A stretch of DNA of 64,000 nt from Flectonema sp. DT1601 (lineage: Eukaryota). The stretch lies in NCBI GenBank assembly GCA_964019425.1, contig OZ025794.1, positions 1,178,001 to 1,242,000 on the forward strand. The letters are read 5' to 3'. The number at the start of each line of letters is the position of its first letter. Positions within the stretch are counted from its first letter, which is position 1. Position numbers and translations under genes: made by a program. Below are positions 4,867 through 38,329 of the stretch, piece by piece. Under the pieces are notes generated by a model, which was not told the origin of the DNA, ran no database searches, and saw only the letters and a list, made by a program, of their open reading frames with translations.

Positions 4867-5026
4867 TCATCTTATACTTTCTACATTTATTGTAGAAGAG
4901 TGCTCCACTAGTAGTGCGCTACGAACTAGTAATAACAAGAAGAATGTTTTTTTTATAAACATTATAACAAAGTAACTACATCCTAGTCTTGCTAACTAAG
5001 ATGCTTCAGTCACAACAGATGATTGA

Positions 5027-5094: not shown

Positions 5095-5610
5095 AATAGT
5101 TACTTTAAAAGGCTAAGTTAAGCATCACACCTAGTCACTGTATCTCAGAACTAATGTTAAATTATCGTTATGTTTTTTATGATACAAAACATTTGTATTT
5201 TACGTACAAAATCAAACAGTTAACCCCCCAGACAGCACATATGTGTTGTCGATACTGACTGTTGGTCTTTTTTACATGGCAACCGGAATTGGTCGGACGC
5301 CACTTTAGTTTTAGCCAGTTTCAAGTTGCTTTCCATCCTTTAATATTAGTCTCAAGTTACCCCCTTCGCATCAGATACATATTCTAAAATGAAAGCTTAA
5401 GCTTCTGTCGTTTTTTCAGTTTAATTTTATTACTTATTTCAGTATTATAAAATTTCTTATTGTTTTCTACATTGTCAAACTATCACCCTTACTTCACATC
5501 AGATACATAAATTATTAAAAAAAACAAACAAACTATAATTAATATAAACCAAGAGAGCAAGAGAAAAGGAAACCTTTAAATATCCTTTTTCCTCTTTGTG
5601 TACTAGCAGT

Positions 5611-8600
5611 ATGAAATCTGCTATTATCTCGGTTGGGGCAATTCTTTGCCTTTTCGGGCAGGCTGATGCTGCACCTGTCACAACATGCAGTCCGAAAGGA
5701 CTGCGTCAGTTTGGAGAGCTTCATCAAGATGTAAAGCATCTCCAAGGATCAATTTTCCAAAAGACTGCTGCGTATGTTACTTTATTTTATTGAAACGAGA
5801 GATACCCTTTTTTTTTTTTTTTGCCCCCCTTCTTCTTTAATGTTAGTTTCCCGAGCGAAAGAGAATCGCGGGAGCAGCAGCAGCAATAGCGTTTTACTTT
5901 CCTTTACAGATTTGTTTTCCAGGTGCGCACAAGCGAAACCAAAGCTGGTGTTGTAAGTTATTCATTATAGTGAGGCGACGATTCATTTTTTAAGTCGCAT
6001 GAATTTTATTTTTCGCCGTCTCAATATCTGTTTTTATTCCTGTTTCGCAATCGTTCATATGAGCAAGGGACAAAGGAAAGATGTTTTTCTTTGCGTTGAC
6101 GTCCTTACAAAGGGAAACGATTTGTTTAAATTAACAACAAACAAAAACAACACCAACCAAACAGTGATGTTCAGGCAAGACAGGATGCTGTCGTTTGTGA
6201 TAACTGCGAAACTTTCACCGTGCCGAGCGTTCAAACACAAGAGCCATTGAACATCCATGTTGATTATTCTCTTCTTGATTCCCAAAGGTTTGCCTGTCAG
6301 GGATCAAACGGAGAAACTATTCAACTTGCCCACGGTGCCACTGGCGGTGCGAGTGAGGCCAAGGACGCGTATACTACTACTGACGGTCAGACCTACAACT
6401 GTGAGAGTACGTGGGTTATTGATAACACGAAGTTGACTAGAATTAGAACCATCGTTTCTGAAGCCATCAAACGCATTCGCACTGGTATTATGGCCTTGAA
6501 GAGATCCGAGGGGGAATCCGTTATTCAGGTTACTAACAACCAGGCCAACTGTAACGCCAAGGACGGGCTTACCGATGTGTTTAGCAACCTTCCTTTGACT
6601 GCTACCACTGCAGACTTTTACCTTTTCGTCGCTGCTAACCCGGTCTTGATCTACAACAGAGATGGTACTAGAATTCAGAGTAACGCTGCTGCATGGCCTT
6701 GTCACTTTGCAAAGCAGAGTTTTAGACCAATTGTTGGTATGCTAACGATCCAGCCTGATCAAATCTTCGGAGACACTGATTACATGGCATCTGTTGTACT
6801 TCACGAGTTGGTCCAGGCACTCGGATGGACACCTGAACTGGCTGAAAAATACGCTGACTGGAGTGACGACTACACTCAGGCACCTACCCCCGTGGAAGCT
6901 GACTTGATGTTCCAGACTCAGACTCGTCACAGTAAACGTGTTTTCGACACAGCTGGAAACCGCAACCAACACGACAACGGGCTTTCCACCGATGCATTGT
7001 ACAGGACGGGATTTGATGGATGGCGGAATTCAGTTCCTATCGGTGTGCCTACCGAGGTTACTCTTGTGAGCTCTAAGAAGGTTATCCAGCAGGCAAGACT
7101 TCACTTCAATTGCCAGTCGATGACAGGATTGGAAGTTGAGGATTACACGCACACGGCGATGGGATACGGTACCGGTTTTACTGACTTCCCTTCGCGCTTC
7201 ACAGCCCTGTGGGAGCGTCGTATTACGAGGGGAGAAGTTATGAACATGCAAGTTGATGTTGGTGCGGTGCTTTCCGGTCTTACTCTTGCTATGCTTGATG
7301 ACACCGGTTTTTACAGAGCTGATTTCAATTCTGCAGAATACCTCTCGTGGGGTTTCGATGCCGGTTGCGTGATGGCACGAGAGACTTGCTACCATTGGTA
7401 CCACCAACCAAGCTTAAACAACTACCAGTGTTTCTTTGAAAGTATCCTCCAACCTGGCGCCGGATCACGTTTAACTGCTAAGCAGTGTACTGTCGACGGA
7501 GGTCGCATTGGAACTTGCAACAGTAGAAGGATGTTCTTCTCAAGTAACAGTCCTCCTACGGTTCCATTGGAGTACACTTCCCCAGCCATGTGGAAGGTCG
7601 GACTTCTGAGGTCTATACCCGCTGATATTGCAGAGAGATTGGCTCGTCAAAATGGTGGTTGTGACGAAATGATGGACCACTGTCCTATTTACGAGCCGGT
7701 GGGTGCTGAATCGAGTTGTCTGGCGCCTGCTATTTTAAATGGGGCAGGGCAAGACTGCACTGGTTCTCTCTGCCGACCTTACAGCATTGCTGGATCGGCC
7801 TCTGGGTGTTTCACGTCAAACATGGAATACGCCGATCGTGTGACCAACCCGCAGCCTTTTTCTGGTAAGTGTTTACCATATTCCTGCGTTTCTCGGGGAG
7901 ACAAATTTGACCTCATTATGGAAGTTGGGAACTCAACTGTTACCTGTACCGATCAGGGAGGTTTTAAAGAATTGGTGTATGTTGGTGGCTTTGGATCTTC
8001 ATCGATCAGGGGATTTGTGTCGTGTCCTTATTCTGCAACGAGATACTGCTCAACTCGTCAGGAACTGGAGAGGATTGATATTCAATTCAAAGACGAAGCT
8101 GGAAAGACCACTGTCGCTGGAGAACGTCGTGAATTTATAATTCAAGCAACCACCCGCACTCAAGCCGGACGCACAGTCGTAGCAATTGGTGCGCAAAACC
8201 AGATTGTAATGTGCTTGATTGAGGGGGAGGTCGAATCTGCCGCAACTGACATCGTTGCCACGCCTCCAGCAGGAGCACTTCAGGCAGGAGAGTCCTGCAA
8301 GGGACAGTACCTTTCCAGACTTGACCCTGCCACCGGAGAAGTTACCTTTAGAACCATCTTTAGATCCCTTCATGCGAAGGTCTTATTTTACGCAGTTGGA
8401 GGAAACTTGGGTGTTAGCCACGTCAGAACTTCTCTCATCATCAGACCAGGTACTCCGGACCGCGTTCGTATCCAAAGCCCTTCCAACGGTACCGAGGTTG
8501 AAAGTGGAATCGGATTTGACATCAGGGTAGACATCGTTGACCTGCTAGGCAATCCAACCAGCGCACCTTCCGATTATTCAACCTGCCCATGGGGTGCAAT

Positions 8601-11600
8601 GATTAAGGACGACAGCGACAACAATGATGGAAACTTTGTAAAGGACAAACGCTGTTTCACATACGTCCCTCAGGCAGCAACCAAGGCCGCAGCGAAAGAG
8701 TACTGCCGCATGATGGGACGGAATTCGAACACTTACGGATACTTGGCTACCATTCCTAATGCTGCTGTTGAGTCGACTTTCGCTATGAAGTCTCCACAGC
8801 CATACTGGACTGGTCTCGAAGTGGCGGGCGCTTCAACTCCGCTTAGCGTGATCTGGGACTCTGGTTCTGACTCTACCTGGTGGAGCAGCACGTACGGAAA
8901 CCCGGCTAACCCGGATTACTCTTTCGAATTCAGAAAGGGTTGCTGCGCCGGTCTTTGGGAACCAAACAGCGCCGGCTACCTCGAAACAGCTGACTACACG
9001 GCCAAGCCAAGTATGGATGGCTGCATCTCATACGACCACAACACCGTTTACTACCCATATGCAGCAATCGAGTGTGAGAATACCCTTCCATTCTTCTGCG
9101 AGTTCGCTCCAAAACTCGAAATTAATTTAGCAGTTGTTGGAGTTGACGGAACAATTCAGTCCCAGAAGGGTATCTACAAGGGAGACCCTGTTCTAGAGTT
9201 CAACGGTGTTGTCCTTACCCGCTCACGATTCGGAGAAGACTACCCAACTGTTATGGTTCAGGCCAGCGCCAGCACGGGATTCCTGTTTGCCAGCGGCGTT
9301 CTGTTGAAGTGGAAACCATCACCTGTTACTGGTCTTCGTGCTTACTTCACAGTTGACGGAATGAAGAGCAACTTCCTCGAGAGCAAGGCTGGTGCTGATA
9401 TTCACATCTTCGCTGAGGGTGTTACTGACATGAATGCGTTTGCCCCTTTGACTGATGGCATTTACCTTGCAATCTATGAGAACGAAGATTCGGAGGTTCC
9501 GCTCTGGACTGCTGGTGTCTGTTATGCAAGGACCGAAGGAGGATGCCGTGTAATATTGACTAAGGAGGATAACCGTGACATTGTCACAAAGGCCAGGACC
9601 CTTATCGTCAGGGCTCGCTCTGGTACGCTCGAGAGAAGACCTTTAAAGATTGATCTCCAGGTGATTGCGGGTGATGCCTGCAGAATTGGTGAGGGTACCT
9701 GTCCAGAAACAGCCTTGTACAACGTTGAAATCGGACCAATGCAGTTCCCAGTTCTGGATTGCTACGGTAATCCGGTTTGTGATTCGCAAGATGTCAGCAT
9801 CACCGGAAATGGTAGGAAGGCACTCACCAGTACCCTCAAGATGATCTGTCCTCACTTGTCGGCAACTGACTGCTGTGCTTCGTTAACTGAAGTGGGTCGG
9901 TGTCAGCAAGTTGGTTGCTTGTGGGGTGACAGAGCTACGATGAGTGATACGATCTGCCCGCATGGCACGTGCTGCTTTTCAAGAAACGGTCCTGAGTTGG
10001 AACCGTTTGTTGGAGGCAGTCGCATTTACTTTCCTGAGAGAATGTGTTTCCCAAACTCACACGGTGTTCTCTACCAGGGAGGTGCTAAGAATACCGGTAG
10101 AGCTGCCAACTGCGACTACTCATCAAACGACAAGCTCGAAGAATCAGAATTTGAAGACAACTTCTACATCAAGGTTATTGAGGGCGGAAGGTTGCAGCTT
10201 GAAGTTACTGGAGATCGACGCGAGGTTGAGTTCGCCGGGAGTTACGACGTCATTGGCAGCACTTGTGTGCCAACTGCTAACGGTGAGGTGAACCTTTTCG
10301 ATTCCTACGTGTTGGACAGTACGAACGTTTGTGACACTACAAAGGATTCGTACAACGCTGCCGACTGCCTTCAGTTGGATCGTCCACTGTGCGAAAGTCA
10401 CTGCACGCGGGAAAGCGGTTGCCTGGGATACTCATACACTGACGAAGAGAGTACAACGGTGACGCAAATCTACGCCCAGACCTTATTCGAGGCTGTCGGA
10501 TGCACAAAAACATACAGCGGATCTCTTTCCATGTCGGTGGAAGCAATGACTGAACTATTCAGCGCTATGTGCAGGAGTAACTTGGGGGGGGATTGCTGCA
10601 CTGGAACCTGCAATTGTGCTGTGCCACAACATTGTCCTTTATCTCACCCGCACAGTTACACCGGCGGCTGTTGTTCTAACGCTGGTTTTGACAGTGCCGC
10701 TGGTACATGCAGCGATGGAGCCGCAATGCCTTGCCTCAGGGAAACTGGCACAGCGGGAGTGTATGCGGTTCTTGTTCAGTCAGAAGCATTCAGTGAAGGG
10801 TTTAATGTTCAGGGAACATCTGATGTTTCGAACTTCGGCGTGAATTTCGTCACAACTAGCGGATGCAGTTCTGGTAGGTCGTTGTCAGTTACTCTGGGGG
10901 GAGTAGTTGTTCGCGATTTGGGATGCACATCTGAAACATCTGTTGTGGTTAGTGTAACTGGTTTCACACCTTCACCGTTAGGAAGCGTATTCAGGGGTTG
11001 CTACCAAGACCAAACTGGAGACAAGGTAAGCAGGTTCACAGTGGTGTCTGAGTGTAGAGCCTTCTGTGATGGTAGCGCATTCTGGTCCATGACTTGCCCA
11101 GAGACTGATGGAAGTTTCACGTGCAAGTGCTTTGCCGCCGAACCGGCAACAGCTCTCGATCAGTCGCAATGCTACGCAACAAACGATTACTGTGGTGGTT
11201 CTACCTCGAAGGGTACCTTCGTTATTGGTGGAAATGCACTCGCAGTCTACGAACGTTCAAACTCCATGTTTGTATCTACTTCATGTGTTCCACATTTACC
11301 ACAGAACGTCAGAAAGTGTGAACTGTTCATGAGTGGGAGAGATGTCTTGGATGTCATCTTAGAAAACGATCCGTTCAGAAACTACGTCAGAGGTGCGAGA
11401 GGCAACGACAACAGCTATGTCAACGTCCTTTCGATGGCCGAAGGTTCAATTTCCACCAAGGAATGCTACACTAAGTCGGTCACAAGCGCATTGCCAATGC
11501 CTCTATTCTCTGTTCAAATTCTCGGACCTGCGGCAAGCGTTATTGACTTGGTTGGTCCTCCAAGAGATCGGGATCACATTCTGAGCATCGAGAATGCAGC

Positions 11601-14600
11601 GAACTGGCAATGCGAGCCAGCTGCGTCACCACAGACTGTTGTCAACGCACTTAAAGATAGAGTGGAGCAGGGTGAATACTACATCGTTAAGATCAATGCG
11701 ATTGAGAAGAGAGAGAACTGGCCCGAGGGTATCAGATATACTGTTCGTCAGATGCAGGTTGCAAACGTGGTCAATGCAAATCTCGGATGCAATGACGCCA
11801 GCTTGGATATTCCTGAGCCAGAGTGCACTGCTGGATACAACTGTCCATCAGGCTGCAAGGGAGCGAAATTTACGAATTCTGTGCTTCCTGCTGATGGTAC
11901 TTGTGAGGAGACGACGCTCACAGTTCGGGCCACTACTGCTGCTGCGAGTGTGTCTGATGGAATTTGTCAGATAAGGATGGGATGTGCTTCATTCGCTATC
12001 ACCAGGTCTCCTCCAACAATCAGATCGGGTGTTCCTATCAGGGAACCAGGCGCTTTCAGGTTCGAAATAGTTGAAGCTGCATTCAGGAACTCGGACAACC
12101 AAGTCGGTTGGAAACTTGACATCACAGACTGCAACAACGTTGTTGTGAAGTCCTGGTCTTCAACTTCTACAACTCTTCTTACGAGAGCCATCAACTACAT
12201 GTCGGAAGGTCTAACGATGGAGCCAGGGACTTGGTTCCCAGAGGGTTACACTGGCCGGTGCAGCTCTTTGAGGGTGACCGTTACATCGACCACACACTCT
12301 ATTAGGAAGGCGGTAGCAGTTATTGCTGTTCTTCCGGGACACCCATACGAAGTGTACGTCAAGGAAGACATTCCTAGATGCATTGAAGCATGTGACACCG
12401 CCATTGTTTCTTCGTGTGAGCAGCTCAGATGGAAGATTGGATTAAGAACCAAGAATGGAATGATTGCTAGAAACAGGGGAATGCAGTGTGTTGCAAGTGC
12501 CTCGATCTTCGACAATTCGGTCTCTGACTACGTTCCAACCAGATTCTCAAGCAGTTTTAATACCCTTTCTGGAACTACTAACGCAGAAGGAGAAGTTTCG
12601 TTCTCGTCAGGATTCAGTGTTGCTGGTCAGTTAAAGATTGTTGTTGAGTGCAGTTGTCCAACCTGCTTAAGACCAGACGGTAACAAGGTTAGACTTCAGA
12701 GATTCCAAGGATATGTTAATGTCTACCCGGCTGCTCCTTTCCAGTTGAGTTGCGCTACCGACAGATCAGATGTGCTCGCGATGGACTTTATTGATGTTCA
12801 GGCATCAGTTAGAGACATTTACGGAAACTTGAACGCTGACAGAGCTGACAATATGGTGATTTCCTTGACCGAGGACTCCCCGGGAATGCTTTTGGGATCA
12901 ACTCGCGAGGAAATTATTGACGGTACCACTTCGTTGAGAGTCATGACCGACAAGGTCGCCGAGTCCTTGACTCTTTCGGTTTCCGTTGCCCCTGCCACCG
13001 ACATCACCCCGACTAATGCATACTCACACGTTGGCTGCTACACTGACTTCTCAAGGTTCTCGTTGGTCGATCAACAAGTGTGTATGAAGACAACCAGCAA
13101 GGCTACGTTCTCACCATCTGAATGTGCGGCTGAATGTGGGATCTACCCAACATTCATAATTACTAAACCTGAGGCTGGTGTTGAGTTGTGTATCTGTACT
13201 ATGCAACCCCCTCAGTCACTCACTGAGTATGGATCGTCTGAAAATTGTCAGACTAGCCAGACTGGTATAAGTAGTGACGTTCGCTACCTAGCCGTGTACA
13301 GGAGAGAAACAGCATTCCCGAGAGTGTTGGTCGCTGCTACCTGCAGAGCCATTACTGTTCACCCTAATAGGCCAAGGAGACTCGTCCTCATCAACGAACC
13401 TTGTTATGAAAACGACAACGGAATCCTTGTTGGTGACTACAGTCAGAGATGTCAGCAGACGTCGAGCAGAGTCACATGTCCAGAGGCAGCGGTTGGACAG
13501 GAATTGTCATACACTGTTCATGTCCTTGATGCTGGTGGTAACTTGGCAGATGTTGCCGGGCTCTTCAAATCCCACCAACACTCGTCTAACGTAGTCGACT
13601 GTCAGAACATTGTCGAGTCGTCGATTTCCGACGGTGGAGATGTGATTCCTTCAACGAGTGTTTGCATTGATGGTTACCCAGAAGAAAACGCATTCCTCAA
13701 CGTTCGTGATTTCAGGGACGAGGGAGACAGGGTTACCGTCTCACCACCGCAAATCATTAACCGTGACGGCCCTGTGCTCGAGTTCACACTCACGTCCAAC
13801 ATCGCTGAGTGCTTGACTGTGAACATCCAAACTACTGGAAGCGTTGAAGAGACTCGCGTTTCCAGAGAAATCTGCTTCCACGCCGGTCCAATCTCCAGAA
13901 TTGCAATTTCGAACTACCCGGACGTGCACCCAGCTCTCGTGCCATTCCCGGAAATGAATGTTAACGTTTACGATAAGTTTGAGAACGCTGTCATGTGGAG
14001 CAAATCTAAGCTAAACATCATTCCAACTGATGACGGTGCCGTGGCTTCTGGACCTGATATGTGCAAGTACTTGAACCCTGCCGACAACACCCGTCAAACG
14101 AGAGTTGTGAACGCCCTATACAGGGTTGGAGGAACTCACGCTGATGGCACTGGTGAGTTAACTCCTTACAGACCATTAGTTCAACTTAGTGATGGAGAAG
14201 GTACCTTTGGAGGATTTGCCTACCACTCTCTTGAGACTGGGCTCGACACCCCGTGCTTTAGACTGATGCTTCAGCTTAGGAGAACTACTAACGCTGTTTT
14301 CTCGTGCCCTGCTGGAATTACTTCCGACACGCTCATTGAAAACCTGATGTTGGAAAATGATGAGTACACCACAATTGATGAACTTACTTCGAGAATCGAC
14401 ATTGTTGGACCTGCTCTCGTTATTATCAACCCACCAAACACCAACCGAATTGTTGTGAAAGCGTTGCAGTTGTACGATGTTGTTCTGTCTGTTCTTCTTG
14501 GAGATGATGGCACCAACAGAGAGAGAAGGTGTTGGGAAGACAGCTCCTGCAACATCGTTGGCTTCGCTACCCGCATGGAGTACGTTGCGGGACCAATCCC

Positions 14601-17600
14601 ACTGAGCGAATGTCCAATGTGCGGCCGGGATATTGGACCAGCCCAAGGCACCGATGGCCGTCTTGTTAGGTTCTCCCGTATGAGTCGCAGGGTTGCGGGT
14701 GTGTACGATTTCAAGTTCTGGGGACAGGGAGGTATTCAGGGAGTTCCGTTTGCTACTCCTGTTGACTTTCAGGTTGTCATTCTCCCAGGTGATGCAAAGA
14801 AGTTGAGATACAAGGACTGCATTTTTGGACAAAGGATTGTTGCCGGGGCCAACTTTGATAAGACTATCGAGGTACTCGATCAGTCTGATAACGTTGTCAC
14901 CGCCTACACTATTGATATTGAACTTCAGCCATACAGAAGAATTGGAGCTTCTGGAGTTGGCGGGGCATACGGCTGGGTTGGAAGAACCTCCAACCTTCAG
15001 GGTTCTGACAGCGCTGTGTTCACTGGCCTCACTATTAACACAGCTGTGAGGTGGGTGATCACTGCAACTTCTGGCACTCTTACTCCAGCTCACTGTGATG
15101 TTCAGATCATCCCTGCTCCACCAGCAAGCTGCAACGTCTACAGGGGAGATTCATTCAGCACCCCACCAACATACACCAAGGCTGGTGAACAATTCAGGGT
15201 TGCTGTTGAATTCGTTGATGAGTACAACAACGTCATCTTCGAGCAGTTAAATGGAGGAACTGTCGTCGTTGCTGCACACCAGGCCAGGGGTCAGCTCAAC
15301 GGAGATTTGTCGGAAGAAATCATGGGACCAGTTACTTCGTTCTCTGTCAACTACCAGATCGCCCCTGAGGATCTCGTCATCTCTGCAACGACTCCGGGTG
15401 TACCACCATGTTTCACTAATGGTGGAAGCATTGTTCCTTCTGACCCAAAGAGGTTGGTTATTACTGAAGTGAAGGAGAGAGTTGGGGGTGTTACAAAGCT
15501 CCCACTCGACCCTATCACTGGACCAATGGATAATGAAAGGGAATCACCACTCCGTGCCAATGAGGAGTTCTGCGTCTTTGTTGAGATTAGAGACGACTAC
15601 GGCAACGTTGTTGATGAGAGCGTGGCAGCTATCCGCGCACTGTACGGATCTGAAATCGAGGGTGGATCTCTTTTCGATATTGGTAACTCTGGTTGTGTTG
15701 ATGAAGAATCGACCCCATTGGATCCATTTCAGTTGACACCTCCTTTCCCAGCATCTGACTTTTTCTTACCTTTACCCCTAGGCGGGTTTGAACTGAACAC
15801 ACTCAGTTCAACTGAATTACCAGATACTTGTGCCACAACCAGCTCTGATCCTCCTAGCGGATCTGCGGTTCCCGACATTGATGAAACGTCCGAAGCAATT
15901 GACAGACCAGAGCATCCAAACCGCCGCGTATCCCTTCGTCGTAAGAAGTGCGCTGGTGCATGTAAGAAGACAGATGACAGACTTGGCGGAATTAAATTTA
16001 TGGACTCCGATAAAGGAAGATTCCCAATCTGTGGAGTCACTTACAAGAGAGCCGAATGTATTTACATCGAGGCAAGTTCAGAAGACCTGACTCCAGATGT
16101 ATCGCCAAAGGTTTGTATCTCCCATGCTCAAGGGACACGATTGGAATGCAGAACCGCAGCCGTGGCCTTCCCTCAAGGCAGACCATTCGGAGCCGTACAC
16201 GCATTGTTGTACGACAGCTTTGGAAACACCGCTACTGACTGTGAGCGTGACGGTGACTGTTCCGTTACTATCAGGGAGCTGCCTGATTCGACGGCGTACA
16301 CCTGTTGTGGAAGGGTCACAAACCCAAACCTCCCAGCCGGGGAGTTGGAAGGCGACGAACTGACGAAGAACGCCGCTGAGGGAGTAGCGACATTTGATGA
16401 TCTGGTTTACACTCGCGAGAGACCAGCAGCCACCGACCCGCTCCGTTTGGAAGTCGTCAACGATGATGCCTCCATCAGGGGTTCATGTAATTTGATGTCT
16501 GTTTTGGGTCTCAGAATCTTGTGTACTGATTCACCTAACCAGGTTATCGCTGGAACTGACTTCAGTATCAGAGGTGCTTACGCATTCGTACAGAATGGAG
16601 TCTTCCGAAGCATTGTATGCGACGGCCCAACACCAAACGAGCACTGTGACAGCAGGTCATTTGCCAAGGTTGCCAGCGGTGGTGTTGCAACCGAAAACAA
16701 CCGATTCGGAGTCCAGGTCGCAGCGGCGGGTCCGATCGCAAATGACGCAGACCCATGTGCGCTCAGTACAAATGATGCCTGTCCAGAAAACACTTGCACC
16801 GTCCTTGCCATCAGAAGGCACCCATTTGACATGCCTGCGCAAACGTGCCGTGCTTCTATTCCTTGGGACCAGCCGGGAGTTACTGCAGCTCAGGGTGTCG
16901 TTACCTTCAGTAACTTGAGGTACCACGTTGCTGGCACCATCAGGACTGAGATCACCCCTCGATCAAACAGTCCGATATCACCACGTGCATGGATTAACGC
17001 ACCAGCGTGCAGCAACTCACCAGGAAATTGTCCAGCGGTTGTTGTTGCTCCAAGTGTTCCTTATGAGATGTGCATGGGAGGAGCCAACTGCAAGAAGTGC
17101 ACTCGCGCACACAGCCAGGACCTCAGTTGCGGTACCTGTCCAAAGAGAAAGGTCGTTGCTGGAGAGTCGCTTGAGATGGGAATGCACATTCACGACATTT
17201 ACGGAAACACCGTCGGTGCTCCAGCTACCTCCAAGACTGTTGTCTCGTGCAAGGTTACCAGCGCTAACCCGACGAGAAACCCAGATGAGCTTGCAAGGCT
17301 CTATCCGAAGTCTGTCTCCAGAAACGGAGCTCGGGCGATTTTGAACGCCGCAACCAATTTGAACACCTACGGTCAGGTTATCACCTCTGAATCAACTCTT
17401 CACGTTGCTGGTATGTACGATCTCACCTGCTGGGCTGATGTATGGAGCACCGATGGCTACAAGACCGGATTCCCAACAGTGTCGTCGCCAGGTAACGTGG
17501 CGTGGACCCCAGTTTTGAAATTGGGTGGTACTGAATTCGACGTTGGTAGCGCGCAGTTCAACGTTCTGCTTAACGCTGCCACCAACAAGGTCATCAGACG

Positions 17601-26600: not shown

Positions 26601-29600
26601 CAACGAAGTCACCCCCAGCGCAACTTCGGGTGCCGACCGTCATCTGTCGCAACAAGGCACGACTTACCTCGTCCTGAAGTTTGTTATCACCACCCCAAGA
26701 GCGTACCTCATTGCGGTTCAAATTGTTACCATTCTAACAACGTGTGCTGACAGACGCTCTGTTGATAATTCATACAATAACTGCAGAGGTAGACTGAACG
26801 TCGTTATCTCTGCGAGATGGTTCTTAGTCGTCATTTACAGACCGAGAGTTACTGAGGGAGAACCAGACTTAACCCCTCTCGACAGTTCACCACAGGAAGC
26901 TGCCACCATTCAGAGCGGTAGGTCGGCGAGAAAGCTGATGGCTGCCATCGATGACCACTTGGCTCAGTTCCCACTTGAGCGTGGACTCACAAACTCACTG
27001 ATTAACCCTGACCCACTTACTGGAGCATTTCCTCCTAAGGAGTTCTACATTCCGACCTTATTGATGGGAACAACATCTGACCTCGGCTCACCAACGGGAT
27101 CTGTTCCATTCTACAGTAGTTACGTCTGGTTTAAGGACACCTTCACCAGAAGGTCATTGGGTGAATTCAAGTTAGTACTCAGCTGCCAGCGTCTTGATGA
27201 ATTGAAGGTAAGAACTGATGATCCAATGGCTCCGTTCACCTACTGGAAGGAGACCGGTTGGATTGAAACCATTCAGAATGCCATCGTCATTATCACCGAG
27301 CCAACTCCGAAGAATGCGGATGCCTGCAGAAGAGCTGGTGACCAGTTTGCGTACCAGGTTGAATTGTTGCGTTCTACTCACGAGGAACTTGTCTCCACTC
27401 CTGCCGGGGCAAGGGTCATGGTTGATTTGAGAACCGTGGACGGTCTTGTGTCGAACGGTCCATTCGCTTGCGATGCTGCCATCTCCACCAGACCGCACAC
27501 CATCACTTGCACTTTGAACACCGTTGATGCCACTCCGGTAGGAGCCATCAACGGACAGGTTGACAGAAGCGCTGCCTGGACCAGAAGGGGACGCATCTTG
27601 GCTAGCTTCAGACACGACTACGCAACTGGAGGTGAGGGATACACTCCAGCTTTCGCAACTGAAGCTGTTCAATTCATCCACGGCTGTCCAAGAAACATTG
27701 TCGTTGACTCTTCTTTACCTTCGGAGGTCGTCATCCACCGTGGTTTCACTGTAGCTGTTCACCTTGAGGATAGGTTCACCAACGTTGGTGGTAACTTCAA
27801 CATCAGGGTGCGTGCTTTTATCGAGAACCCATTCAATGGGGACGGCACGTTGAGATTTACTACCGCAGCTGAATTAGAGGCTGTTGAGGTTTCCCAGTTC
27901 CAGTCTTCTGCCCAACAGGACGGAGGTCACCAATTCGTCGATCAGCTGACTGTTGGCGGCGAAGCGGTCTTCGGTGGGCTGTACGTATCTGCTGACTTCC
28001 TGAGGACCTTGCCAACAACATCCCAGGGATACATCTGGTTGGTTGCCTACGCAACTCACGGACAAGAGGGCACCTGCGATGGAGCGAACTCCTGTTCATT
28101 GTCCACCTACTGCCTCGGAATGGGAGAGACCGAGGGACTGTTTGGTTGTCTGTTTGAGAGACTCCCTCCAATTCTGGTCACTCCGGATATTCCGCAATCC
28201 TGCAACATCCTTGCATCCCCTGACTACGATGGTGTCGTTGCCGGACCAAGATTCTCGTTCCCAGTTGAGTACGACCTCGTTGACAGATGGGGAGTGCGTG
28301 TTCACGAGGTTCCATATGCAACGGAGTCATTAATCTATTCAGTTGCGGCTGGTAATTCCGCCAACAGAATTAGTGAACTGCTCTTCGACTTCAACTTCTT
28401 TGATGAGATTCAGTACCGCAGGGGATCGCTAAGAAGCGTTGCATTGCGCGAGCCAATTAGTTTCACCGGAGACGTAGTTTCTGTTCCACTTCAGGCAACT
28501 GCGGGTGATGAGGTGACCATTTCCCTCGTACATCGCATTGTTGGAGCTGAGGTTGGTACCCAGTTCAACATTGTTGAGCTGTACGAACCTACTATGGGAG
28601 ACGATTACGCTTTCTTGACACTGAAGTCTACCCTTCTTGCTAATGGTAACTACTTACTGGCTATGACTGTTGGTGAAGTGGTGTTCACGGGAGCTATCCA
28701 AATGTCAGGGGAGAGCACATTCAGCGGACTGGAATGGTACACTCACTCTGCTGATGAGATGAAGATTGTCCTAAAGAGAGATGAAAACAGAAGAGTTACC
28801 GATGTTTCTATTACTCTCAGCTGGCAATACAGAGTAACTCTGGTGAGAACTTCTGCCGACGACGTCGCGTTGCCAATTGTATCTCAATTCAAGACATTGG
28901 TATATGGAGATAATCATGTCATTGCATTCGGTGCTGATGTGTACACAACTGCTACTGTCGATGGTAACGTACACTGGACCCGTTACCTGAAGGCAATTGG
29001 TGAACCATATGTTCAGGACAGCACATCAAATGTTGGATTCCTCGTCTGGGCTCTCGGAGTTCCATTCACTGTAAGTGAGACGATGTTCACAACAATTCCG
29101 TTCTTCGATGGCTTCCCGCTGGATGTGTCGTTCTCAGCCAACCGTCGCTGTGTTGCTGCTGCTGGTGGCGTCACCGAACCTGCAAACTGCATTCACGAAG
29201 GATTACAATTCACAAGAAGAGTCGAAGACTTGTGGTATCCTGTCGCTCATGAAGACTTCAGAATTGTTGTTGGTGTCTATGACCTCCGCTCCCGTTTTTT
29301 TGTCTCTTGCCGTACTGACATCATTCACGCCAGACCAGGTCCACCACATGCTCTGAAGTGTTTGGATGTCCAAGAGATGGTATACACAAGGGAAGCTTGG
29401 CACTCATCTGTTGGATTAGTTGATTTTATGGGCAACTCCATTGATTGCTTTGAGTCCTTTGACGAAACCAGAGCATCCGTCTTCCCATCGAAGGAGTATG
29501 ACTGCACGATGCACACGGCCACTGTCTCGGTCCTCAACAAGGAACCAGGCCAGCAGCTTCTCACACCAGCGAGTATGACGACCACTTCGTTCAACAACGT

Positions 29601-32600
29601 TGGTGTTGCTGGGTTCTCTGTTCACTATGCCCAGCCTCCAATGGACCCGCTCACCAACGGAGGAGCTGGTTCACTAACTGTTGGACAAGCTCTACAGAGC
29701 TTCGGAATTGATACATCTGTGGCTGGAAATGAAAACACTGGAGGATGGGATAACTTCGTCTCGACAGTCGATGAAAGAGTTAACTTTGTCGGTGACTGGG
29801 TCGTTGCTGCACCTGTTGCTGGAAGCATCGGAAACTACTTCACTGCCAGCACAACTGCCGCGGAACCGATACTTCACATGAGGTACGTCACGAACGGTAG
29901 AAAGTTGATTACCGGAAACGCATGCGATACATCTTCCCAGAATATTTGCAATGCCGAACAGGCACCGGAGACCAATGACTGTTGCCGTCTCCACCAACCT
30001 GGTAGAATCATCCCACTCAGATCATACTCCGTTCAGTTTAAGCACAGAGTGTCGGCATCCGCAAACAGACACACTGGTCGCGTCGAGGTATCGTACTGGA
30101 GAGATATCAGAGGAACTGAGCAATCTGCGTTGTTGAACACCTTCGTTGTTGAGATTCCAGCCACTTCAACTGGCGCTGGCTGGGTCACCAACGCGTTGGC
30201 TCACACCGCTCCAGCTCGTTCGAACTACGTCTCGATTAGATTGGTTTGCGATAGAACTGAGGATCTTGCTTCAACTACTTGCGGTATTGACTTTGATGAA
30301 TTTAATCTCGCACTGCTTGTTGAAGAAGAGGAGGTCAGTCTCCTGTACACTACAACTGTTCCCCGCCAGAATGACGCTGCGGCTGACCGCAAGTTGGTAC
30401 TCGTAGCTGAGTGTGGACCAACTATTGTCAGAACTCGTACTCTTCCTCCAACACCAAAGATTGCGACTTGCACTCCTGCCACCTGCAACAACAACGGATA
30501 CTGTGGTGGAAACGACCCAGCTTGGTCGTGTCCAGCTGAATTGGAGGGCTTGTTCTCACCTTTCTGTTGCAGAAGAGCTCTGTCATTCTGCTGTGGTGGA
30601 CTCATGCGCGACACCGCTGATTCTGAATTCCGTTCCAAGTGTGGAAACCGGTTCTGCTCTGGAAACGGAGGCCAGTACCCGCTTCCGCCTCCATGTAGAA
30701 ACTGTCACAGAAACGACTTGTTGGGATACTGGGACGGTGACAACTGTGAGAAGTGCGCTGAGGGATACTACGGAGAGAGATGTCAGTTCCGCATCTGTCC
30801 AATCAACGAGCAGAACGGAAAAGAGTGCTCTGGACACGGTCTGTGCCAGAGCAACGGCGAGTGCACCTGTTTTGGAGACAGACAGATCGAGAACACTGCC
30901 GCTGTTCAGGCTTTGAGAATTAACAACGATTATCTGAGATTTACCGAAGACTTGACTATTCCAGCATTGAACACACGTGACAACATCGTCTACGAGTCTT
31001 GTGACACAATCTTGAGCGCGTACGCAACCGGATCCCTTGCTGGTGTTACTGGCGCTGCTTTGGGTCTTCCTGACGAAGGAATATTCGCTCTCGGTAGTTC
31101 AGACACCACCAGCAGCGACTACTTCTGTAGATTCCTCCGCACCCGTCTTGGAAACTACGTTGGTGGAGCTGTTGTTGGAGGAGCGTACAAGCTCGGATCG
31201 GGTACCCTGGCCAGCAACATGTTCAACTTGGATCGTACCGGCGAGGCCACCGGATACATGCCACTTGCTGACTTTGGTGCACCTGCTGTAAGGGGAGCCT
31301 CCTTATTTGCCACGACTGTTGGCCGTCTCTGGCAGCTCACTTCGCTTCAGGATGGCGGCGGTGTTGCTGGAGGTGCTTTCACTAGAACTAGCGGTACCCA
31401 GGCCTGGAACTCGGTCATCTTCGCTACCAACCCACGCAACCCACAAAACGCCCCGGAGTGGATTCAAATCGACAGCGATGTTCTGTTCGCTGCTCTCAAG
31501 ACTGTCACCGCTTCGGCTACGGAGACGTACGAAATTATCGCTCTGAAGAACAGCAACACCATGACTCCATTGGCCACTGTTTGTGTGTACTCTGGAGGTA
31601 GGGATGAAAATGGTAACCTTATATTGGTTGGTATCTTCTCAGACTGCAAGCCACAGAGTGACTCCGTTGTGAGACGCCAGCGTCACACCGCGTGGCCAAT
31701 GTGGTACGGGGAGGGAGCCACAGGTAGAACTCAGAGCGTGTTGGCAAAGTCTATGAGGGTTCTGTTATCAAACTCTGGAGAGGGAGTAAGATTCACTGCT
31801 GACCAATTGAGGTGGGAGATCTCCGGAACCGCGTCCATCCCAACTCAGACTGCCCAGAGGGCACCAGCCAGCTTCTCGACATCTATTAAGGGAGTCATCG
31901 GAGGTAGGAAGAACTTCAGGTGGTCAACCTTCTCGGGAACCACCACCATGAAGCTCACTCACGGTGTTGGTCGCGTTGTCAACTCTTTCGAGAGAGGTGC
32001 TTCGTTCAGAGGACTTCCATCTACTCTTGTTGAGTTGTCGAGTGTTGGGTTCGTACTTTACGCGAGGGCTCCTGCGAATGTGAGAGGACAACTCTCCCTC
32101 TTCACCGCGGAGGGTAGAAAATACGTTCTTCAGAGTGACATCACTTTCCCAGTTGTGAGCGACGGAAATTACGTACCTGTGATAGTTACTGTTCCAAGTA
32201 GTGTTGGAATTCAAGTTGACGATCTACCAGGAGCACAAACGGTTCTCGAATTTACTTCAACTGGTGAATTGGGAAGTGAAGTTACCTACCACGGCAGCAC
32301 TATGCAGATTAAGTACTACAGGGTACCACCACTTGAGGACTTCTCTGTTGAGATGATGTTGAGGATGTCTCATGGCAACCAGGACAGCCCAATGAACATC
32401 TTCACGAGCGACCGCTCGCAGGAAGGCGGTGGGTTCATCGCCATTGACCTCAACACCGATTCTGCGGGCAGACCAACTCCAGCTAGTGTTCGGGTCAGAG
32501 TAATTGATTCATTAGGAACCAGTCTTGAATTCACTACTGAAGGTCTCTTTACAATGTACGGTAACCGTTGGGTCCGTTTGAGAGTTGAAGTCAACCTGGA

Positions 32601-35600
32601 AGACGGAGAGGTGGGCGTCTTCCTCGGTAAGTCGAAGTTGGAGAACGGACGCAAGGCATTCACTCAGATGAACTCCAATGCCATCTCTCGTGGCCGCCCT
32701 ACGATGAGAGGATTCAGCAATCAGATTGCTCAGGATACTACTTTCGGTACTTCTGGTTTGAGATTCAGCGGATGGATGAGAGAGATCATCGTGGTGGCAA
32801 ACGACGTGGTCGTCGAGAAGTTGAACATGCCACTTGCGATCATCTCTCCAGCCACCGCTTCAACTCTGGCTGACTTCTCCCTTTTTGCTGCTCCGGGAAT
32901 AGTCTACGATGCAACTTCAAGAGCCGTAGTGCCACCAGCTGGTACCAGCTTTGACGGTGTAATTGCTCGTGTCGTACCAACCAGTCTGGGAGTATGGGCT
33001 GGTGAGATGTGTAACATCTGCAAGGATGGATGGTATGGTTCCTCATGTAACAAGATGAGTTGTGAAACTGCAGCGGACTGTAACAATGCTGGTACCTGTG
33101 TCGAACGCACTGGAACTGTTGGACTAGTGACCTTCACATGGAGGCAGTGTGTGTGTTCTGAAAATTATGATGGCGAGGAGTGTGAACGCTGTCTACCACC
33201 ACCAGTTGTTGGTGCTCCACGACTTGACGCACAGGGAAGAGTTGTTGGAATAGTCTGCACCGCAGGTAATTGCCCACCAACAGACCCAGCCACCGGTGAG
33301 CCACAGTGTGCTAGAGGAGGAAAGACCGTTGAGGGTGAATACTTTACTGGCGAACCAACTGTAGTAGTCGAATGTTTCGCCCAATTGCAACCACTTTGTC
33401 TCCCACCACAGGCGCCGCTCGATGAGTGTGGTTGCCCAATGACCCCAGTTCCGGTCTGCCGTGAAACACCAGCAGCTCCGGCACTTTACCAACCAGCCGA
33501 ACCACTTGCATACGACTGCAGAGGTTACGCTCAGCTGTACGTCTCGTGTCCTACCGAGGAATGTGGAAGGGCCTCTGTAAACGCGCCTGTTTGTGCTGCT
33601 GACACTGCGGGAGCTCGTCAGTACCCAGGTTACTGTTACACTGAACGTGCGGAGGGATGCAGTTCTACTGATGTAACTGTTGCTGCAACTTTTGTGGAAG
33701 CAAGGACACGTGGTTGGAATCTCAGGAGATGGTTGAGGTTTGTTGGAGACTGTCCAGGACTCTGCGCATCGCCTGCCTTCCAGCAGGAGGGAGGAAGCTG
33801 TGGAAGGTGTGCGGAAGTTAAATTGGAATTCCAAACCATTCCATGTGCGACTGTCCTTCGGGACCATGTTCCACAACAGAAGTTTAAAGAAGACTTCTGT
33901 GGATGTGGATCTCCAAGAGTTCCGGTCTGCGACTTGAGTACTACTATCGAATGGGACTTCGCTAACGGTGATGTGACTTGCCAGGCAACGTGCCCTGACT
34001 GGGTTCAGTTATACAGCGATGGAGGTGTTGAGGTTGACGTGGCAACTCAGGAGATCATCGTCGACTGTGGTAACTGGCCAGCACCAGAGTGGACACAGCT
34101 TCCATGCAGTCACGACGGAACCGATCCTTGTGAATGTGATTTGCCAAGGTTCCGTTGCAAGGTTGACGACGACGGACAAACTACTGAAGGTTTCTGTACC
34201 GACAACAGTTGCCCAACTTGGGGTCCAGCACCACAGGTTGACTGCCGTGGAGCCCTTCCACCGAAGGTCAACCAGGTTGTCGAACACGTCTGTGGATGTG
34301 ACTGGCCAAGGGAACCAGTTTGCGCCCCGGGCACTGGTCCAAGAATCTTTTGTAACTTGGCACCGCCACCTGCTCCAGTTGATTGCTTGGGTAGATCGCT
34401 GTTGAACGAACAGATTTGGGTACCTGGGGTTCCAAGACACACCTTCACCAGAGCATGCAACCTGTGCGGTTCAACCTCGCACAGCAGACAGTGCGTTGAA
34501 GGAACTCAGTGTCCAAAGCCGTTCCCGTGTGCCCAGGAGCCAGGTTCCGACAAGGCGCCTGGTGGAATCGCTTACGGCGTTCCGTGTCCAACACCGACGT
34601 ACGTTGACATCGATTGCCAGGGAGGATACCTTCCGGCAATTGTCACTGAGGCTTGTTGGTGTCCACCGGCAACGATCCCAAGATGTGTCACGGAGGAAAC
34701 TTGCTTCGGCAATGCCACCAAGTGCGGTGCCTACGTCTGTGGTAAGTCTCGAAGTGTAACTCCAATTCCTGGAGACAGATGCAGAACCACCTGTTCACTT
34801 GACGGGCACTGTGTCGAAGGATTTATCTGCATTGAGAACGAGTGTACTCCGGTTGGAACTGTCGCCCCGCCACTGGGTGGATGCAAGGCCGACCCAAGCA
34901 TCTGCGAGCCATTCGCTTGCGACGCCGTAACTGGAGGATGCATTACTGAGTGCTTCACCGACAGGCATTGTTTGGGAGGTGCAACTCTCGCTAGAAATGA
35001 ATCGGGTTACAGATGTAGTTTTGCTACCCTCTCGGGATTGTCTCCGTTGAGTGCCTTCCAGCAGATCGGAGCAACTGACGACGTCGCCACGCAGAGAACA
35101 CAGCCAGCTAACTTGTGTGGTTCTTCGGGTACCGCAACTGGAGGAGGAGTTCAAACCGAACCGGGTAGATGTGTTTGGACTACCAGGGATTCTAACGCCT
35201 GCTTCTCCCAGAATGGTGCGACTAACGGATGTGGTTTGTACGCATGTGGTAAGAACAACACTCAGATCTACTTCGCTAACGCCGCATGCAGAACATCGTG
35301 TTCAAACGATGCTCACTGTAGCAGTTTGGCTCACTGTCAGAGATCTACAGGAAGCTGTGTTACGGGGTCTGCTGGATCTCCACAATCATGCAGCACGAAG
35401 GATTACGACTACTGTACTCCATACGCATGTGGAAAACACATTACTCTCTCACCACTTTCAACCGCCGTTTGCAGAACTGACTGTACTGAAGACGGTCACT
35501 GTTTGTACTTCTACACGTGTAGCATGGGTAAGTGTGTTTCGACTGACGTGATTAACCACGCTCATCAGGCTCCTCCTGCAATCTCACCAACCTGCTACAC

Positions 35601-38329
35601 CGAGGGACAGGAGTTCTTTGGTAACCCATGGAGGTGCTTGAGAGTTCCACTCGCTTTGAACGGCGACCCAGCAGCCAGATATGCCTTTGTTCCTCCTCGC
35701 AGTCCACCGGCACCGGTCATTAAGAGCAGTATTGTTTGCAACAGGCACTCTGACTGCCATCCATACAGATGTGGTTCAATTAGAGGAGTTCCTGACTACG
35801 AATTGGCTCAGGACACCTGTCAGATTACTTGTGAGATCTTCGATGACTGCTCTGAAGGATTCGCTTGTTTCAACAAGTTCTGTATCCAGTTGAGAGCACC
35901 TGCTGCTCCATGTTCGATTGACCGTCAGTGTGCTTCGGGACACTGCGTTGATGGAATCTGTTGTAACACTGCGTGTGACAGTCCATGTCAGACATGCAAC
36001 AACCTCGGTGTTTGTGGATGGGTTGATGTTGGAACTGATGATAGAAATGACTGTGGTTCGTGTATGACTTGCGTTGAGGCCATCGCTGCTGAGAACGACG
36101 GATCGCTCCGTACCTGCGGACTGGTGAACGATGGAATTGACAGAAAGTTCGACTGCGGAAACAACGGAGTTTGCAACGGAAATGGTGCGTGCCGCTGTGA
36201 CGCCAACCTCGAAACCGGATTCTGGGCAGGAGAAAAGTGTGACCGCTGCTTCAGGGGATACTCTGGTCCGCTGTGCACAAGGATTGATGCTCGCTTGGCG
36301 CCACCGGCACCAGCAACCAGAGGAGCTCCTCCACAGACGGTGAACGCCCCCCTCACTGTTGAAAGAAGAGCTATTCAATTCCCAATTAGAGTTCTCGACT
36401 TCTCTACTCAAATCATTCCAGGAAACATTCACAACCTTGTCGGTGAACCAGATGCTGCTGAAGACTACTACGTGCAGGATGAACCACACAGAAGCGCTGC
36501 TTGGGAACCAGTTCAGGTATGTTTATTTGTTATATCATCGTTTTGTGGAAAGAGTGAGTGAACACCGCGGTCGGGGAGTTTTCTACTTTGTCAGAAATGG
36601 AAAAAAAAAAAAAAAAAAAAAAAACAATCGCACCACAACAAAAACAGTACTACTGCGACCGTAGAAGAACTTACAAGGGACCATGCAGACAGCCAACCAG
36701 AAAGGTTGACTGGCAGAATGCGCTTCAGTACGTAGTGTTGGAGTACGAGGAGCCAGTCTACTTGTCTCAGGTATGTTGTTATTTACTTTAGTGAACTGAT
36801 GTCTTTTATTATTATATTAGAATGTGTGGAGGAACGTGAGAGGAAAAAAAAAAAGAAGGCAGAAAAGTAGCAAACAACTAAACAACAGGTTTATGTATTC
36901 GAGAACGCTGAGCCAGGTTCCGTCGTGTCCATCTGGGCTCAGCCAGCGCAGAAGGGTGCTGATGCTTCCCCAGGTGGAGGTGCTCCAGGAAACGATGTCG
37001 TGGGTGCCACTGGTGTTGTCGGAGCCGCGGCCGCAGTCAGAAGACCAACAAACGTCAACGCTCAGGTACTTGAGAACGTCACTCCGGAAACCGCAAGCGC
37101 TGCTGCCACCGCCACCACCGTCCAAGCGTCTTCCGTTAACACCAATCCGCAGAACTTCGAACTCATTTGGAGCAGAGAGAACCCTGTATGTGTTTTTAGT
37201 TAGTTGTTGTAGTTGTTTCAGGGATTTAACGAAATCAATGTCGTCGTTGATATTTTAGTTCTAATTTAGGATATTTCTTTTGGATGAAAAAAATATTCGG
37301 AAACCAAAAGAGAACAAAAAAAAACAGGAATTCTACACCGAATCCATCTCTCGTATCTACACACCTGCTTCAAACGCCAACCCGTTTGCACACCCAAGCA
37401 CTCCGGTGTTGTTGCGTGCAGGAGACCCAGACTCTGCTGTTAACGTGCAGTGGAAGACGAAGGTGATCAAGTTGGTTATTCAGCCAAACAGCAACAGAGT
37501 TTCACAGATTGACTCGGTTGCCATTCTCGGATTCTCTGTCTCAAGTCTAAACAGAACTGGTGAATGCCCGGGAGCAACTTCCGTTCCAACTGGTAATGGA
37601 AGAACCATCGACGTCATGTGCAACGGTAACGGTGTTTGCAGAGCAAAGGGATGTGAGTGTAAGGGTAACTGGGATGGTGCCGACTGTGGTAACTGCAAGT
37701 TCGGATGGGCCGGTGAGGACTGTGAAGTCAGCGTCGTCCGCAGCGTCCCAGCGATCAACTTCTGCGCCGTCGCCATGTTCGAAGACCTTCAGGACTTCGA
37801 AGGAGACACTCTTGAGATTCGTTGGATGATCCAGGACTACACTTTTAGATCATCGAGAGTTATGAGACCTCGTCATTTTGGTACTAAGTTTGTGTCACCA
37901 CAAATCACTTTGGGTGACCATTCTCACGTTCGTATCCAATCTGGATTCTTCATTATGGACATGCCAAGATCTGAGGACTCTGGTGTTATCTCTCGTGTTG
38001 CAAGACGTAGAACTTCAGCTCCAGGTAGAGACAGAACTGAAACTGAGAGACAAGAAGATGGAGAGAGAGTTATCTACTTGAAGAGAGCCCCATATGTCAC
38101 TGGTGTGAACGTTATCGGTTCAGGAAAGGGAGACACTTCTGATCAAATGGACATCACCACATCATGGGATTCTTCAACTCTCAGTGTTGAATTTGAGATC
38201 TGGTCCCCAGATATCGCTGACAACGCCAACAGAGGAAACCACAGATTCACTCTCACTTACTTCATTGTTGAATCATGCACCTACCCATCACAGTCGGGTA
38301 CCGACAACCCAGACACGGAATTGAACTAG
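5611..38329 (+). CDS. Giant secreted multidomain protein (~10,644 aa) with an N-terminal degenerate leishmanolysin/GP63 (peptidase M8) domain. Exons 5611-5771, 6165-36516, 36648-36770, 36889-37185, 37328-38329
   Basis: Signal peptide MKSAIISVGAILCLFGQADA. Four GTATGT...AACAG introns all preserve frame (31,935 nt spliced CDS). M8-like motifs RPIVG, HELVQALG, ARLHFNC, GLEVED, LTLAMLDDTGFY, LSWG..AGC. C-type lectin ~8580-9110, many D-x-x-G-N Ig-like repeats, WSC/PAN-like modules, Kelch ~19340-20780, laminin-type EGF and Cys-rich repeats. Confidence 0.9.
5772..6164 (+). other. Spliceosomal intron 1 (393 nt, phase 2)
   Basis: GC|GTATGT ... CAACCAAACAG|T joins the signal-peptide exon in frame to the 30-kb ORF (..QKTAA-DVQARQD..). 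Confidence 0.8.
36517..36647 (+). other. Spliceosomal intron 2 (131 nt, phase 0)
   Basis: CAG|GTATGT ... ACAAAAACAG|TAC; removes an in-frame stop and a poly-A run. Confidence 0.85.
36771..36888 (+). other. Spliceosomal intron 3 (118 nt, phase 0)
   Basis: CAG|GTATGT ... AAACAACAG|GTT; yields continuous YEEPVYLSQ-VYVFENAEPGSVVSIWA. Confidence 0.85.
37186..37327 (+). other. Spliceosomal intron 4 (142 nt, phase 0)
   Basis: CCT|GTATGT ... AAAAAACAG|GAA; joins in frame to the terminal exon. Confidence 0.85.

Follow-up and report, generated by a model that had tools for sequence, protein, structure and literature searches.

A single gene in 64,000 nucleotides of DNA from Flectonema sp. DT1601 (GenBank assembly GCA_964019425.1, contig OZ025794.1, positions 1,178,001 to 1,242,000 of the forward strand; hereafter the window) encodes a predicted secreted protein of 10,644 residues and 1.15 MDa, here called the giant protein. 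Its architecture combines a head related to leishmanolysin (peptidase M8) that is predicted to be catalytically disabled, a stalk of Ig-like domains with probably nested modules, and a reelin-like tail unit. Most N-glycosylation sequons (N-x-S/T) have been purged from the chain, and the protein belongs to a family with giant and compact forms. These features are new here. The family, built from known domains, is apparently undescribed: an initial annotation made from the window's sequence did not recognise the architecture, and full-text literature searches, with subscription journals mostly outside their scope, found no published description of it. As to place and function, we infer with about even confidence that the giant protein is a secreted, anchorless, disulphide-rich and non-enzymatic scaffold or adhesin: a filament of the diplonemid outer coat or hair layer.

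Few marine eukaryotes are as abundant as diplonemids, and the marine single-celled flagellate that carries the giant gene is most likely one of them. Literature searches turned up no protein that had been named as part of diplonemid surface hairs, adhesive coat or extrusomes. The family supplies concrete candidates, including one in the model species Diplonema papillatum (KAJ9441658.1), which makes the question of what these structures are built from testable by tagging.

Gene model, conservation and sequon loss

The initial annotation had proposed a protein of this length in five exons, mostly encoded by one 30,352-bp exon, with an intact frame ending in SGTDNPDTELN and no C-terminal transmembrane (TM) or glycosylphosphatidylinositol (GPI) signal. 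All of this stands. An open reading frame (ORF) scan gave 10,143 open codons at window positions 6130-36558, and splicing of the five exons (Table 1) leaves no internal stops. All four introns start with GTATG and end in an A-rich tract followed by ACAG. The cis acceptors (6135-6164, 36618-36647, 36859-36888 and 37298-37327) hold 18 to 21 A in 30 nt and no pyrimidine tracts. The acceptor of a possible mini-exon at 5923-5952 is T-rich, resembling the site before the ATG and unlike the A-rich cis acceptors. The contrast between A-rich cis acceptors and the T-rich, likely trans acceptor may serve to keep cis- and trans-splicing apart. Hydropathy exceeds 1.6 at residues 5-23 and in one weak window at 6893, and nowhere else, which agrees with the annotated signal peptide as far as hydropathy can judge it. 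Hydropathy and tail alignments revealed no hydrophobic C-terminus and no TM or GPI-type signal; most of the complete tails that were aligned share the same C-x-(Y/F/W)-P end. Cysteine makes up 4.2% of the protein and proline 5.7%.

Relatives support one continuous chain. Word-index protein searches gave three matches among 1,491 candidates, four among 7,994 and one among 7,994. They comprised two ENA genes present as several ORFs, which were grouped by the equal length of their contigs (P0001 with P0004; P0008 with P0005 and P0006), a more distant paralogue (P0003, whose tail we take to be P0020, on a contig of equal length) and P0002 from Diplonema ambulator. The spliced transcript P0007 aligns over three junctions (exons 2/3, 3/4 and 4/5) and has the same C-terminus as the giant protein; it shares a Trinity gene id with P0002, so its species is presumably also D. 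ambulator. P0004 and P0006 both end at the intron that follows exon 2. Six sets of relatives together cover 10,578 of the 10,644 residues (99%) in the same order at 27-46% identity, with cysteines conserved at 93-98% in five orthologue sets and at 78% in P0003. In Namystynia, a single transcript ORF of 6,827 residues (P0010) begins at the end of the M8 head and continues into the tail. Against a continuous chain, the D. ambulator locus is split: two isoforms of a single Trinity gene contain two complete ORFs. The identity and cysteine conservation support an old gene under purifying selection, as had been proposed. The repeats are highly diverged, also as proposed: comparison of the giant protein with itself by BLAST found no self-similarity at E<0.01, and a repeat scan found no tandem array within the gene. 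The word-index searches missed giants, P0010 among them, that HMMER later recovered, so we do not claim absence from any species.

The 30-kb exon is, on the evidence of these gene structures, lineage-specific: inside exon 2 the orthologous genes fall into several ORFs. Excerpts of PMC10161547 give a mean of 1.6 introns for D. papillatum genes. Given this number, and since the exon is not conserved as such, its length is not the surprise here.

The giant protein has 10 N-x-S/T motifs against 73.3 expected (Poisson 2e-20), and the minimum among 1,000 block shuffles was 49. In four of the 10 motifs the next residue is Pro, and the stretch from residue 829 to 9569 has no usable sequon. Control motifs (D-, Q- and G-x-S/T and the reversed motif) occur at 1.0-1.3 of expectation, and sequons in two long neighbouring ORFs at 1.2. 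Counts are also low (observed/expected) in P0001 (5/46), P0008 (3/25.8), P0005 (1/22), P0004 (4/18.8) and P0003 (17/62); among seven compact forms, only P0022 is mildly low (8/16). A purge of this kind implies that the whole chain would pass the glycosylation machinery of the endoplasmic reticulum (ER). Glycans would presumably be harmful to the protein in the purged clade, through packing, self-binding or quality control. A seven-fold loss in one clade is an unusually clean signal that selection has acted on how a very large secreted protein is made.

GC content at third codon positions is 0.50 in the giant gene and 0.29-0.36 in six neighbouring ORFs, consistent with the higher GC already annotated. 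Compared with seven other ORFs, the gene uses more NNC (0.68 vs 0.29-0.58) and NNG (0.63 vs 0.24-0.42). It favours C and G at two-fold sites, and its four-fold T is similar to that of other ORFs. The high GC looks like codon bias rather than foreign DNA, and would be typical of a well-expressed gene. Horizontal transfer was rejected as an explanation of the GC step, since most of the shift is at two-fold codons and orthologues have introns in common.

The disabled head, the stalk, the tail and the family

The modules named in the initial annotation mostly held up. Its M8-like head is borne out by Pfam (E 1.4e-32, profile positions 250-519 of 529), with the amendment that the head is predicted to be catalytically disabled. 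Aligned with leishmanolysin 1LML (E 5e-9), its second and third zinc His are substituted, so that two of three ligands are lost. In the giant protein HELVQ replaces the HExxH motif, and the second His is Gln there as well as in P0001 and P0008; at the third position the giant protein has LWERR where P0003 has HWEKR. The Met-turn (GEVMN) and the Cys-rich C-terminal domains of the M8 fold are present. An ESM Atlas search with the head gave M8 clusters, as a lead only. Zinc ligands are missing in 10 of 11 aligned family heads, P0003 alone being complete. P0003 clusters with three disabled giants in a quick head tree, apart from seven compact heads, and the latter bear substitutions differing from those of the disabled giants. 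For this reason the ligands were apparently lost in at least two events while the fold was kept, if regain is excluded. This points to at least two occasions on which free-living trypanosome relatives turned the GP63 fold into a non-catalytic head, and to such entries being mislabelled as peptidases in databases. The automatic database name of the D. papillatum compact paralogue KAJ9441658.1 is 'Leishmanolysin-like peptidase'.

The annotated DxxGN Ig-like repeats form the stalk. A profile of the N-terminal half-domain, seeded on the family itself, matched 22 times within residues 805-7814 and did not match in any of nine shuffles; a profile from P0003 alone recovers most of the 22. A structure model of residues 5200-5990 (five sequences, mean pLDDT 45.9) was usable for an apple domain and one Ig domain. 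The Ig repeat resembles a GH2 domain, intimin, FdeC, InvE and filamin (Z 8.7-10.5, rmsd 2-3 over ~100 residues), and the apple domain resembles the Sarcocystis lectin SML-2 (Z 9.7, rmsd 1.8, 68 aligned residues). The C-type lectin fold is backed by a family profile (tetranectin E 4.6e-7). The WSC and PAN modules fall below the Pfam cut-off in the giant protein; WSC passes it in the orthologue P0005, PAN is represented by the modelled apple domain, and two weaker PAN-like units lie elsewhere in the chain. The Kelch propeller and EGF units pass Pfam cut-offs, and an NCBIfam scan gave a single sub-cut-off match, of Kelch type. Follow-up searches did not confirm the annotated LamG-like region. PDB sequence searches gave no match for residues ~5000-9000 or alignment A3, and only E>=1 for alignment A6.

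The lectin-like domain, the PAN module, the fourth WSC-like module and the Kelch region each begin shortly after an Ig N-half. Downstream of the PAN and WSC insert, an Ig C-half is detected in P0005 (E 2e-13) and P0010 (E 8e-6), and the C-half model also gave three weak matches in nine shuffles. Nesting of lectin-like, PAN and WSC modules inside Ig domains is likely and no firmer than that, because of these shuffle matches and because the C-half is seen in the two relatives rather than in the giant protein.

Repeat-unit counts of the arrays that follow are near-fixed across the family in both forms, by models seeded on the family, and a teneurin-type EGF passes the Pfam cut-off. The tail was modelled on the relative P0014, which is 48% identical to it (34 sequences, mean pLDDT 74.8). 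The model consists of a first jelly roll (discoidin/CBM32/IFT25/pappalysin/laminin-LN-like, Z 11-12), an EGF pair and a second jelly roll (reelin-B/MAM/Eph-like, Z 10-10.7). Pappalysin itself scores Z 11.6 against the first roll, in agreement with the pappalysin-like jelly roll annotated near the C-terminus. The top six Foldseek ranks for this model are reelin chains. ESM Atlas matched the last domain to ciliate and bacterial clusters at 0.89-0.90, again as a lead only. At ~35880-36070 there is one copy of CxSGxCVDGxCC, a repeat typical of myxobacteria; the large proteins P0019, P0038, P0040 and P0064 have up to 35 matched stretches of it.

The extracellular protein of more than 1 MDa that had been annotated is thus one continuous, predicted secreted chain, with the correction that it is a member of a family. 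HMMER with P0007 matched 320 proteins at E<=0.001; among the best 150 of these, most below about rank 40 align to a short Cys repeat only. The source organism was looked up for 23 proteins. Giant-type members occur in Artemidia (three transcripts), Namystynia, D. ambulator and the ENA genes. Compact members, of 2.8-3.4 thousand residues, have the head, EGF units, Cys arrays and tail without the stalk, and occur in Sulcionema (two), Lacrimia, Namystynia, D. papillatum, one ENA gene and the free-living prokinetoplastid Apiculatamorpha spiralis. None of the 23 proteins, several of which are unlabelled, carries a euglenid, bodonid or trypanosomatid label. Compact and giant-type rows separate at 100/100 in a midpoint-rooted tree of 26 tails, several of whose branches are long. 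The compact paralogues P0022, P0023, P0027-P0029 and P0037 have the first jelly roll interrupted by an insert of ~270-620 residues, at a loop that is short in the giant form. In several compact forms the lectin-like domain stands before the M8 head; in giants it stands after it. A protein of 1,983 residues from Fabomonas tropica (P0057) shares the Cys-Pro and CxPYxC arrays, the EGF pair and part of the first jelly roll, and then carries CBM96 and H-type lectin domains. The cassette of Cys arrays and tail thus also exists in part outside Euglenozoa.

In the available part of the PMC10161547 supplement, three orthogroups labelled 'Leishmanolysin-like' appear as diplonemid gains or expansions. 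Two of them include prokinetoplastids; Bodo, trypanosomatids and euglenids are represented in none. From their name and range, these orthogroups probably correspond to the family described here. Term searches for 'leishmanolysin' found nothing in the accessible main text of PMC13615690 or the accessible supplements of PMC12699882.

Proposed place and function of the giant protein

If the giant protein is a coat or hair filament, its signal peptide would send the whole chain into the ER, where the disulphides would form. Because it has no anchor of its own, its tail (Cys arrays and two jelly rolls around an EGF pair) would attach it to the cell: it would bind either surface glycans or partner proteins, or else polymerise. 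The Ig stalk, whose fold was modelled for one repeat, would be a spacer of ~100 nm or more (an Ig domain spans ~4 nm), with the C-type-lectin-like, PAN, WSC and Kelch modules as its side branches. The head, with its zinc ligands lost, would bind instead of cutting, and would face outward together with the binding modules. Compact paralogues would be the same device minus the spacer.

Several observations favour this filament model. The chain is single, intact, collinear and conserved, and has no TM or GPI signal. Its stalk repeats have counterparts among the Ig folds of bacterial adhesins, S-layer proteins and GH2 domains, and its tail matches glycan- and protein-binding jelly rolls. The loss of zinc ligands in 10 of 11 heads with the fold kept, the near-fixed repeat counts, the sequon purge and a codon bias of high-expression type also speak for it. 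Diplonemids possess a glycocalyx, a hair coat, hair-coated vesicles and adhesive mucilage according to excerpts of PMC5845003 and PMC10653844. Two species for which the consulted part of the literature lists extrusomes as ND, D. ambulator and D. papillatum, have transcripts or gene models of the family.

Other observations weigh against it. The folds of the tail and modules are common, and a shared fold does not show function. Calcium-dependent C-type lectins carry EPN or QPD and WND motifs; the lectin-like domain lacks these canonical calcium and sugar motifs and has GNP-A/I/S and YxAxx instead. The Ig C-half after the PAN and WSC insert was not detected in the giant protein, where the model is of low confidence. 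The giant paralogue P0003 retains a full active site. The sequon purge is missing in D. ambulator (37/37), the three Artemidia proteins and Namystynia P0010; it is missing in most compact forms as well, so it is not essential. Finally, Bodo bears non-tubular hairs (sections of PMC7859406 and PMC8061765), and there was no Bodo member among the 23 proteins looked up. On these partial sources, the giant protein would not be a general euglenozoan hair protein.

An alternative place is the tubular extrusome (trichocyst), where the giant protein would form the lattice or core, stored in a secretory organelle until it is shot at prey. Members occur in the extrusome-bearing predators Artemidia (three giant-type transcripts), Namystynia and Apiculatamorpha (excerpts of PMC7859406 and PMC8061765). 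The orthogroups of the same range, presumably this family, are absent from Bodo, trypanosomatids and three euglenids in the available part of PMC10161547, and fixed repeat counts and glycan avoidance fit tight packing. However, there are also members in D. ambulator and D. papillatum, with their ND entries, and in Lacrimia, another species of which has dense hairs and no extrusomes in the sources as far as consulted. Moreover, the giant proteins of the extrusome-rich Artemidia and Namystynia are not sequon-poor. We consider an extrusome role unlikely.

The head could instead make the giant protein an inactive partner in a proteolytic complex for attacking prey, binding substrate and positioning an active paralogue of the P0003 type. 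P0003, with its HExxH, third His, Met-turn and the same stalk, clusters with the disabled giants, all three of which retain the catalytic Glu. Yet just one of 11 heads is intact, and such a complex seems quite improbable. From the mosaic layout and the two D. ambulator ORFs, one could propose a polyprotein precursor that is cleaved after secretion into separate lectin-like and matrix pieces. The 10,644 residues contain only two RxK/RR motifs, modules probably sit within Ig domains, and the Namystynia ORF is unbroken from head to tail, which leaves this proposal with a poorer chance still. The last alternative, that the long ORF arose through misassembly, misannotation or the fusion of adjacent genes, or is of foreign origin, as its GC above the flanks might hint, is largely refuted by the collinear orthologues over 99% of residues, the conserved introns, the lack of a tandem array and, as weak evidence, pyrimidine-tract AGs numbering 0 inside exon 2 and 9 in 38330-64000.

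By analogy, the giant protein would work like hair proteins of the MST3/PKD1 type, reelin or bacterial Ig adhesins; it lacks what defines each of these, and what defines active M8 peptidases. Leishmanolysin/GP63/invadolysin have a homologous head, but compared with GP63 the giant protein lacks two zinc ligands and the GPI anchor and has ~10,000 further residues. Reelin is likewise large, secreted and anchorless, with an A-EGF-B order of jelly roll, EGF and jelly roll as in the P0014 model. Reelin has eight tandem repeats; in the giant protein one such unit was recognised, with no self-similarity by BLAST, its first roll is nearer discoidin/CBM32, and the protein has an M8 head, an Ig stalk and an acidic/polar tail instead of a Reeler N-terminus and basic C-terminal tail. 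Attractin and MEGF8 have a Kelch propeller, EGF pairs and a C-type-lectin-like domain in common with it. The giant protein differs in having no TM helix or cytoplasmic tail, another domain order and several times the length; CUB had no Pfam match at E 0.1 in 13 segments, though diverged domains can escape Pfam. The stalk fold is shared with bacterial Big_1 adhesins and S-layer proteins (intimin, FdeC, InvE, SbsC; Z 8.7-9.2, with GH2 Ig at 10.5). Unlike these, the gene is eukaryotic with introns, and its product is disulphide-rich, has no beta-barrel anchor and probably has modules inserted in its repeats. With pappalysin the jelly-roll fold alone is shared, there being an M8 head and no M43 catalytic domain. 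Chlamydomonas mastigoneme proteins MST1/MST3 and polycystin-1 have large Ig-like and C-type lectin ectodomains, and build or carry ciliary hairs (excerpts of PMC11015965). The giant protein has such an ectodomain too, as an analogy only, but neither a PKD-like multi-TM domain nor a long polyproline helix.

It is tempting to speculate further, on a proposal that we hold as possible but doubtful, that the family is building material of the hair coat or extrusome lattice of diplonemids and predatory kinetoplastids. Each member would be a filament capped by a pseudo-GP63, its length set by an inserted bacterial-type Ig stalk with nested lectin branches, and sequons would have been purged over ~8,700 residues in one lineage so that a megadalton chain can fold or pack.

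Mapped features and neighbouring genes

Table 1. Features of the giant gene, in window coordinates
Feature	Position	Strand	Remarks
Candidate spliced-leader trans-splice acceptor	5577..5609	+	Pyrimidine-rich AG just 5' of ATG, 15 T/30 nt; putative role
Exon 1	5611..5771	+	Signal peptide ~residues 1-20 and pro-like segment, by hydropathy only
Possible in-frame 30-nt mini-exon	5923..5952	+	GTAAGT donor, frame kept; acceptor T-rich, not A-rich
Exon 2	6165..36516	+	30,352 bp; following intron at same place in P0004 and P0006
M8/leishmanolysin-like head, predicted disabled	6202..8073	+	HELVQ 6802-6816; LWERR 7207-7221, third His replaced
Stalk, at least 22 DxxGN Ig-like domains	8101..29643	+	Big_1 / GH2-domain / intimin-like fold
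C-type-lectin-like domain	8647..9105	+	Directly after Ig N-half; no EPN/QPD or WND at canonical places
WSC-like module 1	10981..11268	+	Seeded family model
WSC-like modules 2-4	~13051-13317, 22201-22437, 23566-23829	+	Module 4 Pfam E 0.002, below cut-off
Kelch propeller (Pfam-hit core), then Cys-rich units	19420..20151	+	PF24681 E 1.2e-17; KLHDC2 E 3.8e-5
PAN/apple module	21865..22074	+	With WSC-like 3, likely nested between halves of one Ig domain; Pfam below cut-off
Beta-rich block with EGF pairs (30451-30873)	29656..32883	+	CBM-like/LamG-like labels by motif only, unconfirmed
Cys-rich arrays	32971..36303	+	6 Cys-Pro units, 5 CxPYxC units, EGF pairs
Start of tail jelly roll 1 (discoidin/CBM32/pappalysin/laminin-LN-like)	36358..36516	+	P0014 model, Z 11-12
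Exon 3	36648..36770	+	Jelly roll 1; junctions agree with spliced P0007
Exon 4	36889..37185	+	Jelly roll 1 with low-confidence loop
Exon 5	37328..38329	+	End of jelly roll 1, EGF pair, jelly roll 2 (reelin-B/MAM/Eph-LBD-like), stop; Z 10-10.7

All window ORFs above 330 codons lie on the + strand, as in the unidirectional gene clusters of diplonemids described in excerpts of PMC10161547. Just upstream of the giant gene, a reverse-transcriptase ORF (3-3053, +; RVT_1 E 5.6e-8) is followed by a low-complexity ORF (2971-4863, +), and the two are likely part of a retroelement. Downstream, a single-ORF gene of ~2,530 residues (40795-48387, +) has weak ankyrin matches, low GC3 and a normal sequon frequency, and served as a control. 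Four tandem 2OG-Fe(II) oxygenase ORFs of AlkB-like type (Pfam 2OG-FeII_Oxy_2) lie at 54449-55192, 56950-57693, 58764-59420 and 60626-61366 (+); their MGN(S/Y/C) starts are, we presume, possible myristoylation sites. A 21-bp tandem array at 55376-55968 (28 copies, 98% matches) is open in several frames, and its DUF6799 match is probably a repeat artefact. A DUF3754 gene (62690-64000, +) continues past the end of the window.

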